A stretch of DNA of 63,671 nucleotides, filler included, from Basidioascus undulatus (taxonomy: Eukaryota): assembly GCA_000826855.1 (NCBI GenBank). It is 17 parts of 17 records of this genome, joined end to end, with 100 filler letters (N's around TTAATTAATTAA, not from the genome) between each part and the next. Parts side by side here need not be neighbours in the genome. Positions count along the whole stretch, not along the records: positions 56,167 to 58,603 come from JTLS01002765.1; 16 more parts are not named here. One strand, given 5' to 3'. The notes below the pieces were generated by a model. The model saw nothing but the letters and a program-made list of their open reading frames with translations. It had not been told where the DNA came from and did no database searches. Shown piece by piece: positions 26,496-58,703 of this stretch (the stretch's first letter is position 1; each line of letters begins with the position of its first letter). Made by a program: the position numbers and the translations under genes.

Positions 26496-28547
26496 ATGCT
26501 GAACCGCGTCCGGCGCTTCGAGCGCCCGCGACTGACCATCCTCGGCCGCTCGGCCGCCCTCATCGCAGCCGAGCTCCTCGCGAACGTGGCGTGCTGGGTC
26601 GCGGCGGGCGTTTTGTTTGGGAGAGACAAGGAGCGGAGAGGGATTCTTTCGCTGGCGCTTGTAGCTTGGGTGAGTCGAAATATCCCATGTCTGATGCAGT
26701 ATAAGTGCTTAAACTCCATACCGGTACGTCAGACCTTGGGACTGCGACATGGTACGTTTCCCGAACGCGTTTTGCTGGTGCGCTTGCTGAAGATGCGCGC
26801 GTCGTTCGCGGTCCCACGCACGCAGGCCTCGACAGCGACCACATTTCGGTGAGTGTTCATTGAAATGTTCAGGGGTATGGAGATTATTCTCAACATAGTC
26901 ATTACAGGCTATCGACAACGCGACGCGGTCGCTGATTTCATTGGGTCAACTCCCAGGTTCGTCTTCGTTTCGTTGCGTCGACGTAACATTGTTACCTTAC
27001 GTGGAGCTAACCGTACCCCTGAGCAGTCACCTGCGGTTTATTCTTCAGCTTGGGTCACAGCACGATCGTGTTGGTGGTGGTACTGACTTTCAGGCTTGCG
27101 CGCTTCGCGGAGAATTTCGGAAGCTCATCTCCGGCCCTTCTAGACGGTCGCAATCGCCATTAGCACGGACGTGTACAAGCATTTGGGAGGTGTGGGCGAG
27201 GTTGGTGGCATTATCGGTGAGTTCTGATGTTTTGAACGCATCATGCATCTGACAGCCCGCTGCGAAGGCGCCGCCATCTCGTCCTCGTTCCTGTTCATCC
27301 TCGGCGTCAGCAATTCCATCATGCTCCATCGGTCAATCCGAGCGCGGCGAAAAGTGCGGGTATATTTTTGGAGGTGCTGTGGGCGCTCTGACATTGATGC
27401 TCTTGAGCAGATACCAGCCGAACAGAAGCGCTCGGTGGCGACGGGGTACGGCGCGGCCACGCCGCAGGACGCAACCGAACCGAAGGACAACACGCCTCCA
27501 GCGCCTACTTTGCTGATGAAGATTATCGGTCCACTTCTTCGCTTCGTTGACCGTCCCTGGAAGATGTATCCTGTGGGCATTCTGTTTGGCTTCGGTCTGT
27601 GCTTTTGTCGCGCTGTTCCACGACTGGGTCCTCTTACATATCTGCTTGGTACAGGTTTCGACACCGCCTCCTCGATCGCGCTCCTCGGAATCTCTGCCAT
27701 TGCTGCTCGCGATTCGAAAGGTCACGGCATTTATCCCGCCGAGATCCTCGTTCTCCCTCTGCTCTTCACATCGGGCATGTCGTTCGTCGACAGCGCCGAC
27801 TCGATCCTCATGCTTTACGCGTACGCCGAGCCGAGCACGCGAAGTGAGCAGGGTCGTATAGCACTTTTTCGACCAAAGCGCGGCGATAACCTCGCGCCAG
27901 TCGAGGAGGCGGCGAGCGCGGAGATCGCAGTCGGGGCAGCCGAGCCACTCAGTGATAGGATGTCGGTGGATAGCAAGGACGCGGATGTAGCGGTAGCGCC
28001 CGCGGAACCTCAAGGGAGCGCAACGGTTGAGGAAGGCGACGCAGAGAGGAAGAAGAAGGTCTTGACGCCTATGACAACTTCGAACCTCTCGATCGTTCTC
28101 ACCCTGATCAGCATCGTCGTGGCGCTCGCGTGCGTCTCAATGTCACCATGGGCCGGCCGGGTTACGTTGCTGATGAACTGATGGTGGCCCAGCATATCCG
28201 TCATTCAAATTATGGGCTTGATTGGCGAGAATTGCGCCCGCTGCACGCGAGCTGCGGAGGCGGAGGAAGGCGGAGGCCTCGAGGGATCGTGGTGGCGCTT
28301 CTGGGTAGCGGTATGTGGCCTTTCATATCCATGGTTAAGGCTTAGCTGACAGTTGTGCGCCACAGGCCAACGACAACAGCGGGTAGGTAGTATCTGCTCA
28401 ATGGCCCATCCCGCTGCTTGGTTCTAACTCGACTCCTGCCGCAGGTCCATCGGGGCAGCAATTGTTGGGCTTTTTGTGGTCATTCTCGCCGTCTATTACG
28501 GCTTCCGCAAAATGCGGCAGTCAAGACGTTCGCCTGTTCTTCTCTAG
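26496..28547 (+). CDS. NIC1: High-affinity nickel/cobalt permease (NiCoT, Nic1-like)
   Basis: Spliced signatures GLRHGLDSDHISAIDN, FFSLGHSTIV, DRPWKMYPVGILFGF|GFDTASSIALL and LFTSGMSFVDSADSILM. Confidence 0.92.
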
Positions 28548-39128: not shown

Positions 39129-40038
39129 ATGCATCGAATCATAAGCTTCCCGATGCTCCTACTCCTCGCGCTCACGATGCTGCTCTTCGTGCCGCAGGTG
39201 TTCGCACAGCGCCCGGCTCCAGCGGGCGGCGCCGGCGATGATGGCGTAAATGACGCTGCGGGTGGGAATGGGGATGGAGATGCGGATGCGGGAGATGAAA
39301 GTGTGGCTCCTGGGGGTGCGGCAGGAGGAGACGCCGGCCCTTCAACGGTCCCCTTCCCGAGCGACCTGTTTAATATCGACCAGTTCTTCGTGCGTTGTTC
39401 TCCCATCTCCTCGCATTATTCCCCCCAATCCGATCAGCTTATAAGGATTGGCTTGACGAAACTCACAGCCCAACATCCCCGACGACTTCGCCGACTCCCT
39501 TACAGTCCCGACCTCGGGTCTCCCGACTCCGACCGCAACCGCACGCGCCTCGATCCCGCGCGGCGAAACACCCACGGCGCTGAACGACGACGAGGAGCCC
39601 ACCCCTTCTGCTCGCGCCACGACGACCATGCGCGCGCCGACGGCGACGCGGACGCGTGCGCAGCCCGCGCCGACGGCGACGCGGACGCGTGCGCAGCCCA
39701 CGCCTACGAACGGGGATGAGGACGCCCAAGGCCCGGAGGAGACCACCGCCGCCGACCCGGACAGCGCTGGGCAGCAGGATAGCACCACCGCCGCGGCCGC
39801 TGCGGGGACCGGGACCGGGACCCGGACCGGGACGGCAATTGGGCGGAACTCGACGACGGTCGCCCCGACGTCGACGACTGTGGAAGTCAGCACTACGAGT
39901 CTCAGCACGACGACGCCCAGTAGCAGCGCGGCGCCGAGCGCGAGCAGGTCGCTTAGCAGCGGTGCGGCCCCGCAGGTTGCCGGGTGGGAGATGGGCTTGG
40001 CAGTTGCTGTTGTGGTTGGATTCGGGCTGGCGTGGTGA
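39129..40038 (+). CDS. Ser/Thr-rich, probably GPI-anchored cell-surface protein
   Basis: Signal peptide (...VPQVFA-Q), one intron, a T/S-rich stalk with APTATRTRAQ repeats and C-terminal SSGA...LAVAVVVGFGLAW*. Confidence 0.8.
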
Positions 40039-46607: not shown

Positions 46608-46829
46608 CGTACGAATATATTCGAAAGGGTGCTGTTAAATTTGAGAAATTGATATCTTTGTGAGATACTCGAGCGTAAGAAGAAGAGTGTTGAGTTTCAG
46701 ACTGGGTGTATGCGGCGCGTGAGGTTGTGGTCGGGAACAAGCCGCGCCACGCGACTTGCCTTTCCCGCCCGCGATCGCCCTGGCCCCGTTCCTCCTGCCA
46801 TCATCCCCAGAATCCTCAGAATCCCCAGA

Positions 46830-47782
46830 ATGTCTTCCGACTACCCGCGCATCAATCTCGACTCGTCCAAGCACCTCGCGCACGTCGAGCAGTCGTACGC
46901 TCAGGTCCTCCACGACATCGCCCGCGAGTCGCGCGCGGGGAGCAAGAAGCGCAGCGCGTTCGACGAGCAGGTCGATGTTGTCCTCAGGCTCGTGCGTTGC
47001 TCGGGGGTTGGAAGATTATGAGCAGGGAGCTAATAGGGAGAAGGTACGGTGGAGCAGTACCTCAAGAAGACGTTCGACCTGGCGCGCCCGAATCTGCGCG
47101 TGAATGGGCAGGACTACGAGGAGTCTATCAAGCAGTCCGAGGGTGCGTCCACCCCCCGCCCTCCATCTCCTCCCTCTCCGTTACCATCTCGCACCCCATC
47201 TCGTTCCGTCCTGATCCCCACCTCAACTGCCCAGACCTCGAGCCCTTCAACGAATCCTACCGCGCGCGGATGACCGCACTCGAAGCCGAGATCGACGCGC
47301 TCCAGACGCGCATGGCCGAGCGCCGGCGCACCGTCCCGCTCGAGCTCGAGCGCGTGCACGCCGCGGACGTCGCGCGCTGGCGGACTGTGGACGAGCGCGT
47401 GCGGGCGCTCGTGGAGGAGGAGGAGCGCGCGGCGGAGGAGGAGCGGAAGGCGAGGGAGGAGGGGAAAGGTCAGTGTTGCTGCTCGGTGGGAGAGCGGGAC
47501 GGGGATGGGATGGAGGCTGATGTGTTGGGATGGTGTTGGGTGGGGCAGGTCCTGTACCGACGCTGGACGAGGAAGCCGTCGAGACGTTCAATACCACCGC
47601 CGCGCAGATCAGCGCCAGCCTCTCCGTGCGTCCCCGTCTCCTCTCAGCCCCTCCCAGTTCTCCCCTCCTTTCAATACTTCCTTTCCTCACCCTCCCGATC
47701 TCTCCAGATCCTCCCCGCCCAACTATCCAAGATGGAGCAAGCCCAGTCCCTACGCTCCGAGATCGAGTCGCTCGAGAGCTGA
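46830..47782 (+). CDS. NSL1: Kinetochore MIND/Mis12 complex subunit Nsl1/Mis14
   Basis: MSSDYPRINLDS, TFDLARPNLRVNG and LEPFNE...MAERRRTVP match the Mis14 family pattern. Confidence 0.75.
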
Positions 47783-56066: not shown

Positions 56067-56790
56067 NNNNNNNNNNNNNNNNNNNNNNNNNNNNNNNNNN
56101 NNNNNNNNNNTTAATTAATTAANNNNNNNNNNNNNNNNNNNNNNNNNNNNNNNNNNNNNNNNNNNNAGTACTGGATGGACACCCAGTCTGGTGGAAAGTC
56201 TTCTAGTAAGGGCTGTCAATGAAAAGGCTTCTAGAGCGTAGGATCATCCAGGTGCGTCGAGTCCAACGGCCTTCTCTGGGCAAGCGTTGTGCGCTGCCGT
56301 TGTCGACAAAGGAACAGTCTCGTTCGAAAAAAAACCTTCGCACGCACACAGTCAAGATCCTTTACGAGATAGAAACAAATAACCATTCAGACAATAGGGT
56401 GTTTGTGGTATCGTTTTCAAACGCAGTAGTTACACAGTGCGCGAGACAGGCATGACGCATCCCAACAGGCACAGCGACGACTCACCGACAGCCTCGCAGA
56501 CGACGAGGTTAGGGTTACATAGGCCGAGAAAAAAACAGAACTCCTCCAAAGAGGAGGAGAAAAAGAAAACCGCCCCGTCGCCGCGAGGGCGGCCGGCGGG
56601 CGGGTGCCACCGCAACCTTACGCTCAGGCGGCTGGGTGTGCGAGGAACGCCGTAAGCGCGGCTCGCCCGGGGTGGCCAGCCGCCGGGGTCTCCGACGCGT
56701 GGGCGTTCTCAGAAAAAGATAAAGGGCGGACTCACCATGACGGCGAAGCGGGCTCTTCCCCGAGACCCGACAGTGCCCGGTGAAACGAGA

Positions 56791-57275
56791 TGTCCCAGAG
56801 GACAAGGATGGGCGCAGTGCGCCGCGCCCCGGAGGGCGTTAAGATCGAGATGTCCCGGAGGACAGAGAAAGGCAGCGCCGGAGCGCATCGTGAGGCAGGA
56901 ATGCGTCGGTACGTAAGAGAAAAGCAGCGCCGGAGCGCGTTTGTAAGACGGGGATGCGTCGGAACGCAAGAGGAAGCCGCGCCGGAGCGCTTTGTAAAAT
57001 AGAGATGCGTCGGAATGCAAAAGAGGGAGCGCCGGAGCGCTTGATAAGACGAGATGCGTCGGAACGCAAAAGGAAAGCGCGCCGGACCGCCTTTGTAAGA
57101 GAGATGCGTCGGAACGCAAGGGAAAGCAGCGCCGGAGCGCGTTCCTAAGACGGGGATGTGTCGGAAAACGAGAGCAGCGAGCGCCGGAGGGCGTTTGAAG
57201 GTCAGAAATGCGTCGGAACGCAAAGGTAGAGCAGCGCCGGAGCGCTTTCATAAGACGGCGATGTGTCGCAACACA
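56791..57275. repeat. Degenerate tandem array of ~50-53-bp units, each holding two mini inverted repeats around a CGGA core (19 hairpin units)
   Basis: GCGCCGGA starts at 56875, 56927, 56979, 57029, 57079, 57129, 57181 and 57234, alternating with TGCGT-CGGA-ACGCA-type units. Confidence 0.93.
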
Positions 57276-58337
57276 AGATGTCCCGCATCCATCTCGTCTC
57301 CAATCCCAGCCAGCGGACTCCAACGCTTACCGTGCTTCTCCCCTCTCCCTGCCGTGCCCTCTCGCGCCCAACCTCCGCCTCCCACTCAGTACCTTAGCAA
57401 ACCCCTGCGCAGCCCACGCTCCTCCCCGCCCCATAAGGCGTTCGATAAGAGACATACGAAAGCCCTCCGAGGGACTGAGAGGGCGGCGGCAGCGGACGGG
57501 CCGGACAGAAGGGAAGGGTTGGTTTGGCGGGTACGAGACGAATTCGAACATGGACCAAACTTGAACAGCCGGGTGTGAATGAGGGACTTGAAGACCGGAA
57601 GGCGGTCGATAAGGTGAATCGCAAGCGGTGATGGGCCGAGTGGTTGAAGCCTCGACGGCTTCGACGTGCCAGCAAGAGCCCCAGCGAGGAAGAGGCGACT
57701 GGCGAGAAGCTGGCGAGAAGACGCACGTACGACGACACGGGCCGTTCAGCGGCGCACCCGTCGTCAAGTCAAGAGAACGAGAGACCGAGCTTGAAATGAA
57801 GGAGATGTGTGAGGATCCCTTTCGGGGAGAATGATGATGGCAGGGAGAGGGAAGAGGAGGAGCGTCGTTGACCAGGGATGAACGTAGCACGGAAGACGCG
57901 GAACCGTCGGGCCGCCCGCCGCAGGTCAAGGCGGCTGAGCAGTTCGCTCGCCTAGATGTTACTGGTTGTCTTGGATGAGTAGTTGACTGCAGGAGAGGAT
58001 GCCTAGAAGGAGATGCTAGGTTTACAGTCGAGACTGAAGTCGAAAGTCGAGCACAATGCGCCTGAACATCGGTCAGGCCGCTGCGTCCTTCCGTCCTGAC
58101 TTCCATGAAAAATCAACCAAGCAGTTCCGATCGGGCGCACTGAGAAACCCACCGCGAAGGAAGGTCCTCTGCCTACAACACAAGACCCTCACTTCGCTCT
58201 CCGCCTTCTCGCTCGACCAACCGAGGCCAAGCACTGCCCCACAACCAAGCACTGCCCCACAACTTCCACAGCCGGCATTCCACATCCCACAACTCAGTCA
58301 AACACATACATCATCCGCGATCTACCCCCCACCGGGC

Positions 58338-58495
58338 TTAGTGCTTAAGCTCCACCCGCTTCCCAGGCGCCCACTCCCTAGCAGCCTCATCGATCTTCGT
58401 AAAGTACCGCAGCTTGATGGCCGCCGCTTTTGCCGCGTCGTAGTCTCCGGCGGAAAAGGCTGAGGAGAGGTCTGCGAGGGCCGCTTTGACGTTTT
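58338..58495 (-). CDS. JAC1: Fe-S cluster co-chaperone Jac1/HscB, last exon
   Basis: AFSAGDYDAAKAAAIKLRYFTKIDEAAREWAPGKRVELKH*. Confidence 0.8.
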
Positions 58496-58703
58496 CTGTG
58501 TCGGTGCGTTTATGTTGTGTGAGGGAAGGAAAGGGATGAAGGGAGGGGCAGGGGGGGGGGGGGCAGGTCTGTTTGGGTGTTGTACGGGATTGAGGATGTG
58601 TGGNNNNNNNNNNNNNNNNNNNNNNNNNNNNNNNNNNNNNNNNNNNNTTAATTAATTAANNNNNNNNNNNNNNNNNNNNNNNNNNNNNNNNNNNNNNNNN
58701 NNN

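Follow-up and report, generated by a model that had tools for sequence, protein, structure and literature searches.

What keeps a series of very small palindromes able to pair in a stretch of fungal DNA that carries no recognisable coding sequence, while the letters of their stems change on both arms? This question is raised by an array at positions 56791 to 57280 of a window of 63,671 nucleotides, the whole stretch of DNA that was analysed, in which 17 parts of the genome of Basidioascus undulatus (GenBank assembly GCA_000826855.1) are joined. The array lies on the part taken from JTLS01002765.1. The original prediction described it as 19 covarying mini-hairpins with a shared CGGA centre, and proposed a structured RNA, a 5' leader or a set of cruciform DNA sites. 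The hairpin observation is confirmed as real and above chance. The array is a 52-bp minisatellite in non-coding DNA of a basidiomycete-like fungus, and its hairpin cores are conserved differently from its linkers, which is a new argument for constraint. The components of the array are as follows.

56791..57280, unstranded: mini-palindrome array of 19 units, about 9.5 copies of a 52-bp A+B unit, delimited by repeat detection and profile search
56811..56823, unstranded: additional 5-bp hairpin GGCGC-AGT-GCGCC within the first, longer unit, present in the folds of both strands
57278..57292, unstranded: 20th, truncated unit at the right edge, A-TGTCC-CGCA followed by TCCAT, without a complementary right arm

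Two types of core alternate along the array, type A being GCGC-CGGA-GCGC and type B being TGCGT-CGGA-ACGCA, with a size of 12-14 nt, a stem of 4-5 bp and a centre of 4 nt. The first 10 loops start at 56796, 56830, 56856, 56879, 56907, 56931, 56960, 56983, 57011 and 57033, and loops 11 to 19 start at 57060, 57083, 57110, 57133, 57162, 57185, 57214, 57238 and 57267. The spacing between loop starts is 22-34 nt, and both the positions and the spacing agree with the original prediction, as do the details of loops and stems that follow. The CGGA loop is found in 16 of the 19 units, the variants being CAGA (56796), CGGT (56907) and CGCA (57267). Variant stems are found at the edges, with TGTCC/GGACA (56791, 56851) and CGCCC/GGGCG (56825) on the left and TGTGT/ACACA (57262) on the right. 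In the anchored register, 14 of the 19 units form a perfect hairpin with a stem of 4 bp or more, and a single G·T pair occurs in 2 others (56902, 57006). Three of the 19 are damaged, namely 57079 with GCGC/CCGC, 57157 with TGTGT/AAACG, and 57181 with GCGC/GGGC, which needs a shifted register to fold.

All these hairpins belong to a tandem repeat. Tandem Repeats Finder reported 56864-57278 with a period of 52, 8.1 copies and 74% matches, together with an additional row of period 100. A search with nhmmer and a profile of the unit recovered 9 AB units, with E values between 2.9e-08 and 1.6e-16; the rest of the window gave no hit below E 0.9. Head-to-tail copies of one unit of 10-100 bp are the mark of a minisatellite, and such copies are what the array contains. 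The 52-bp repeat implies that most of the hairpins are copies by descent and not 19 independent observations. The linkers had been described as variable and mostly A/G-rich; they do diverge most, but a T..TAAGA block 3' of type A is largely conserved and the ATG preceding type B is invariant. Perfect hairpins with a 4-bp stem and a 4-nt loop start 16 times per 501 nt in the array versus 2.2 times per 501 nt in the remaining window, a sevenfold excess, and 12 of the 17 hairpins with a CGGA/TCCG loop in the window fall inside the array. Additionally, cores of the same type lie 50-53 bp apart (56875-57245), or about 5 turns of B-DNA, which by arithmetic only would place the A sites on one helix face and the B sites on the other.

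Pairing was counted on an ungapped anchored alignment of the 19 units. It can be seen that 86 of the 95 stem cells (90.5%) pair, against 74.0 +/- 2.8% in shuffles, none of which was as high in 500, and against 17-67% when the partners were slid. Counted over the inner four pairs alone, pairing holds in 73 of 76 cells. Two-sided changes occur in 4 of the 5 stem pairs, comprising 18 cells, and the stems can be divided into the following classes.

Class B0, TGCGT/ACGCA: central units
Class B1, TGTGT/ACACA: 57262, and 57157 with the left arm only
Class B2, TGTCC/GGACA: 56791, 56851 and the truncated unit
Class A0, GCGC/GCGC
Class A1, CGCCC/GGGCG: 56825

The step from B0 to B1 consists of two CpG transitions, and the step from B1 to B2 alters two more pairs. 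A0 and B0 differ in the closing pair, which is C-G in the former versus T-A in the latter. A1 combines the outer pairs of A0 with a contiguous 8-mer, CC-CGGA-GG, that is present too in the adjacent B2 units, so that one short conversion could yield it. Unit 57181 joins the right arm of A1 to the left arm of A0 and has the appearance of an intermediate. Judged from these classes, the independent compensated changes would represent about 3-4 lineages, not 19. The claim of compensatory covariation thus stands in part: pairing exceeds both the shuffled and the slid controls, but its weight rests on these few lineages, the 52-bp tandem repeat having been overlooked.

A second line of evidence comes from comparing cores with linkers. 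One genealogy is common to all columns of a unit, and the rates of the columns are therefore comparable. Cells that depart from the majority letter make up 2 of 72 in loops (2.8%), 18 of 162 in stems (11.1%) and 59 of 224 in linkers (26.3%). The mean pairwise difference per column is 0.00 (A) and 0.11 (B) for loops, 0.10 (A) and 0.27 (B) for stems, and 0.41 for linkers, the cores being 2-10 times better kept than the linkers (Mann-Whitney, loop below linker p=3.3e-4, hairpin below linker p=5.7e-5). In a star-tree simulation, which ignores shared descent, stems drifting at the linker rate gave 50.9 +/- 4.1 paired cells of 76, and 73 was reached in 0 of 20,000 runs. The unpaired centre holds the best-kept columns, which is not predicted by a purely mutational keeping of palindromes. 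The conservation of cores over linkers points to constraint on the hairpin form rather than plain drift.

The reading we favour, tentatively and at somewhat less than an even chance, is that constraint may act on the cores as folded single strands, the likeliest setting being a non-coding transcript that carries them as a multivalent platform of hairpins. Such a transcript would display about 19 near-identical tetraloop hairpins split by low-complexity spacers, and a hairpin- or loop-recognising protein would bind the array multivalently. That the array is transcribed, that it is folded in the living cell and that a protein binds it are inferences. The stem classes differ on both arms around a common centre, a difference that a dimeric protein contacting the bases of double-stranded DNA would not accommodate. 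Should the cores be under selection as RNA hairpins, the locus would offer a rare natural case of tetraloop hairpins in a multivalent array in a eukaryote outside mammals, in a phylum with few long non-coding RNAs (lncRNAs) of known mechanism, and the contrast of conserved cores with free linkers would make it directly testable. If template switching alone maintains the palindromes, the array would be a compact natural case of apparent covariation without selection and a caution for covariation-based RNA discovery in repeats. On either reading, hairpin counts within tandem repeats need correction for descent.

A second copy in the same genome bears on the RNA platform. Contigs of 3 DNA-type runs were compared, and the array-bearing contig is contained in a 15.9-kb contig of run X1. 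Two DNA-type runs of about 35 million letters cover the array-bearing contig nearly in full. The array itself was found in the contigs of runs X1 and X2 with 1 and 0 differing letters and no gaps, both of which may be from the source strain. The word depth of the array contig, a rough guide, is 42.6 versus 40.8-52 for long single-copy contigs; being in the range of the latter, the contig looks single-copy. A second locus matches 56563-56581, 56735-56795, 57102-57149 and 57208-57256 with 0, 8, 7 and 9 mismatches (about 81-87% identity). The intervals between these matches differ, with 53 letters for 306 and 106 for 58, and array-like sequence then follows. Flank and array are present at least 2 times in the genome, diverged by about 15% where they can still be aligned. 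In the single readable unit of the second locus, the GTGT/ACAC stem is kept and the centre is changed to CGGG; this retention of a stem by a paralogous unit around an altered centre was counted in favour of the RNA platform. Elsewhere, the exact A+B pattern had 0 matches in collections of metagenome, prokaryote-genome and viral contigs. The JAC1-like exon described below gave 594 stretches with its peptide pattern in metagenome contigs, 0 of which were confirmed by tblastn. Among the listed papers on minisatellites, palindromes or hairpins of basidiomycetes, titles and abstract openings showed no comparable nuclear array, which does not prove absence.

The surroundings of the array are given by the following features.

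56167..58603, unstranded: contig carrying the array, 2,437 bases, the sole true context; beyond its ends lie artificial joins
58338..58495, minus strand: last exon of a JAC1/HscB-type co-chaperone gene (Pfam HSCB_C)
56533..56790, unstranded: GC-rich flank, up to 72% G+C, adjoining the array; the second locus has parts of it too, together with array sequence

The exon matches HSCB_C at E 3.4e-07 with 31.0 bits (cut-off 22.1) over profile positions 38-73 of 74. It is preceded by an AG acceptor at 58497-58496 and ends with a TAA stop at 58340-58338, and the rest of the gene is cut by the end of the contig. On the minus strand, the array lies about 1.06 kb downstream of this exon. From the JAC1-like stop to the contig end, at least 2.2 kb hold no recognisable coding sequence, and a non-coding RNA gene would fit there. 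The non-coding character claimed for the region was upheld: a Pfam family was found in 0 of 13 and 0 of 3 open reading frames (ORFs) other than JAC1, and no homologue turned up for either of the two longest ORFs, one of which, of 261 amino acids at 57330-58112 on the minus strand, also lacks a Pfam family. A coding origin of the array was considered and rejected, the minus-strand ORF of 205 amino acids having neither homologue nor Pfam family and the period of 52 not being a multiple of 3. An Rfam search, as suggested with the original prediction, found no match on the contig at E<=1. The proposed 5' leader is unlikely, since the plus strand has no coding sequence beyond the array and the JAC1-like gene that comes next (58495-58338) converges. 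Inspection by eye found no Helitron 3' ends, snoRNA boxes or loop or linker motifs of PUF, Smaug or Nab3 type that were consistent across units. A 6-bp hairpin, CTCCTC-CAAA-GAGGAG, can also be observed at about 56541-56556, within a very GC-rich stretch at 56467-56700.

Computed folding counts both for and against the RNA platform. Taken singly as RNA, intact cores are computed to form stable hairpins of -5 to -10.8 kcal/mol; for type A the minus strand gives the greater stability, with -7.7 to -9.2 kcal/mol versus -6.0 to -7.5 kcal/mol on the plus strand. The fold of the array as a whole, over 516 nt, has a z-score of -1.57 on the plus strand, with 9 of 100 shuffles as good, and of -2.94 on the minus strand, with 0 of 100 as good. 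The strongest windows in a sliding-fold scan of the contig are 56467-56666 (z -3.4 on plus, -2.7 on minus) and 58067-58266 (minus, z -3.9). The minus strand is indicated by the strand of the upstream gene, by type A reading c(UCCG)g and by the better whole-array z-score; the plus strand is indicated by the two G·T units.

Several observations speak against the RNA platform. The z-scores of the array are modest, the sliding scan shows no striking signal within it, and in the 516-nt minimum-energy fold many of the mini-hairpins are displaced by long-range pairs, especially on the plus strand. The indications of strand conflict, with the G·T units on the side of plus and the thermodynamics of the loops and the adjacent gene on the side of minus. 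All of the covariation comes from one genome and from the approximately 3-4 lineages named above, of which TGTGT/ACACA requires merely two CpG transitions and CGCCC/GGGCG is possible by a single micro-conversion. Three of the 19 units are broken. Also, the simulation takes no account of shared descent, and slippage and misalignment in purine-rich tracts may inflate the variability of the linkers.

Among the other explanations, a neutral or selfish minisatellite without function is nearly as likely as the RNA platform, although it also falls short of an even chance. Its palindromy would have been made and restored by template switching and micro-conversion; a quasi-palindromic seed of 26 nt would have been duplicated to the 52-bp A+B unit, followed by slippage or unequal exchange. 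Template switching is reported to give rise to hairpins, and to preserve them, in the absence of selection (Monttinen & Loytynoja, PMC8794818). The array resembles minisatellites shaped in this manner (PMC8794818) in its head-to-tail 52-bp units, its higher-order period of about 100, its more diverged units at the edges and its short, restorable inverted repeats, all in the form of a classical tandem repeat. The compensated changes are few and lie in short contiguous tracts, the inner pairs plus loop measuring 8 nt, and three units are broken, of which 57181, with the right arm GGGCG and an unchanged left arm, has the look of a half-finished conversion. Unlike the product expected of template switching, which repairs arms and not loops, the array has its unpaired centre best conserved (2 of 72 cells altered, versus 59 of 224 in linkers). 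Stems of 4-5 bp are also short relative to known template-switch tracts, the CpG-rich cores show little CpG decay, and several correction events would be needed within 490 bp; these points count against a purely neutral origin.

An array of double-stranded DNA sites is improbable. The units would be bound by a sequence-specific protein, perhaps of the zinc-cluster type, that recognises CGGA/TCCG at their centre, and would act as an enhancer, insulator or terminator region. Fungal zinc-cluster factors recognise CGG triplets, the asymmetric CGGA centre is invariant and always in one orientation, the spacing is regular with one type every 52 bp or about five helical turns, and the position is intergenic near the end of a gene. 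Each core carries one CGG in a single orientation, about 26 bp from the next, and by eye no CGG-Nx-CCG pairing with a constant N was found; moreover, flanks that stay complementary while their sequence changes are left unexplained by such sites. More improbable still is an origin from an old mobile element, as one of its internal or subterminal repeats, or from a segmentally duplicated module. The second genomic locus with flank and array-like sequence favours it, and the copia-type gag ORF elsewhere in the window indicates that the genome carries retroelements. The original prediction had named a match to a subterminal repeat of a known transposon, or to a spacer of ribosomal DNA (rDNA), as evidence against it, and the contig itself showed signs of neither. 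No terminal inverted repeats flank the array, the 2 inverted pairs of the contig both lying to its right, and no transposase or reverse transcriptase ORF is present on the contig. In the run contigs there is a single further copy at a likeness of at least 85%, no sequence similar to the array occurs in the remaining approximately 61 kb of the window, and the word depth of 42.6 is like that of long single-copy contigs. The element ends, transposition gene and many copies that characterise a transposon repeat were accordingly not seen. For an intergenic spacer of rDNA, the contig has no rRNA match, and it carries a nuclear JAC1-like exon at a word depth (again a rough guide) of 42.6. Cruciform DNA, the remaining form in the original prediction, is implausible on established knowledge, arms of 4-5 bp being too short.

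Within the favoured RNA platform, a more specific version can be framed by analogy, and it is rather unlikely. The array would be the protein-recruiting module of an undescribed basidiomycete lncRNA downstream of the JAC1-like gene, with about 19 UCCG/CGGA hairpins and a paralogous gene copy, as a fungal counterpart of the Xist A-repeats. The A-repeats are reported to comprise 7.5 copies in human, each with a short GC-rich core of two predicted small hairpins, the first of which is GGCGC-[AUCG]-GCGCC with a 5-bp GC stem and a conserved tetraloop (PMC2602763). They are joined by low-complexity linkers and described as a protein-recruiting platform (PMC2602763, PMC8887474, PMC10870365). The array is similar in that each of its approximately 9.5 units contributes two small, GC-rich hairpins with tetraloops, and in that the spacers are of low complexity. 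Its hairpins, in contrast, are spaced evenly about 26 nt apart and are not adjacent in a 26-mer, and its linkers, unlike the U-rich ones of Xist, are rich in purines on one strand and in pyrimidines on the other. The two are unrelated in sequence, Rfam gives no match, and the host is a fungus.

The boldest version of the lncRNA is that the array forms the 5' arm of a telomerase RNA (TER) precursor on the minus strand, with a candidate template 273 nt further on the same strand. It depends on one word.

56507..56517, minus strand: 11-nt word GGTTAGGGTTA, reading UAACCCUAACC on the minus strand, resembling a TER template, found by word search

That the array is part of a TER gene or precursor is very improbable and is noted as a lead only. 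The word UAACCCUAACC lies 1.82 kb downstream of the JAC1-like stop, within the long stretch without coding sequence, and it spans at least 1.5 telomere repeats if the assumed repeat of the host is correct. Within the window, TTAGGGTTA occurs once, at 56509-56517, and at least one was present in 5 of 100 shuffles. In Ustilago maydis, TER is reported to have the template UAACCCUAA and a length of 1.3 kb, and to be cut from the 3' untranslated region of a protein-coding mRNA (PMC9564094). The same source gives 782 template-like loci in the U. maydis genome (PMC9564094), which makes the word alone weak evidence. About 70 chance 11-mers would be expected in a 35-Mb genome by an arithmetic estimate. 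The contig ends 340 nt past the word, which leaves a pseudoknot and CR4/5 beyond reach, and duplication of the flank in the genome would be out of the ordinary for a TER gene. We know of no TER with such a hairpin array. The TERs of Malassezia are described as found only via conservation (PMC12506658). Outside Ustilaginomycotina and Malassezia, no TER was found among the listed papers on TER in Agaricomycotina and related subjects, which does not prove absence.

The original prediction had itself invoked two other systems, and both likenesses hold in part. CsrB/RsmZ RNAs are bacterial and bind CsrA/RsmA, and the array is like them in having many short hairpins with a GGA-containing loop (CGGA in 16 of 19 on the plus strand). 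This likeness is one of architecture only, the array being in a eukaryotic genome, as indicated by the intron-bearing JAC1-like gene, the copia gag and basidiomycete-like proteins, with no Rfam match at E<=1. The extra-stable cUNCGg tetraloop was claimed for the minus strand. There, type A reads GCGC-UCCG-GCGC with C-G closing, and the UCCG loop with C-G closing is found in 8 of 9 type-A units, the exception being 57083 (C·C); the computed energies show the extra stability, and the CGCA variant stays within UNCG. The 10 type-B units, in contrast, mostly close with U-A, and 2 of the 3 loop variants (UCUG and ACCG) no longer belong to the UNCG class. Loops of this class usually serve to cap a structure, not to bind a protein. 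None of the known families fits the array.

The remaining observations concern the contig and the window outside the array. On the array contig, an exact 18-bp tandem duplication, CCAAGCACTGCCCCACAA, is present in 2.1 copies at 58227-58263, and a long run of G lies at about 58550-58565. The last 65 bases of the contig (58539-58603) recur on other run contigs, which is probably the reason for the assembly break there. In the window, the parts are joined by 16 linkers of the form N44-TTAATTAATTAA-N44 (32 runs of 44 N) between 2456 and 61237, for example at 56067-56166 and 58604-58703. The joined parts are mostly about 2.5 kb long and follow one another by decreasing length, with one 23-kb stretch at 17853-40851, and features across a linker are not genomic neighbours. 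The copia-type gag ORF is located on another contig at 5224-6306 on the plus strand (Retrotran_gag_2, E 1.3e-30) and represents a retrotransposon fragment. At 46694-47779 on the plus strand, an ORF has a weak match to the Mis14 kinetochore family (E 1.5e-4, below the Pfam cut-off). The 23-kb stretch carries a 33-bp tandem repeat at 39633-39708, with 2.3 copies and 95% matches. Additionally, an ORF at 27228-28178 on the plus strand matches the NicO nickel/cobalt transporters (E 8.4e-22), and its nearest Atlas clusters are mainly of basidiomycetes.

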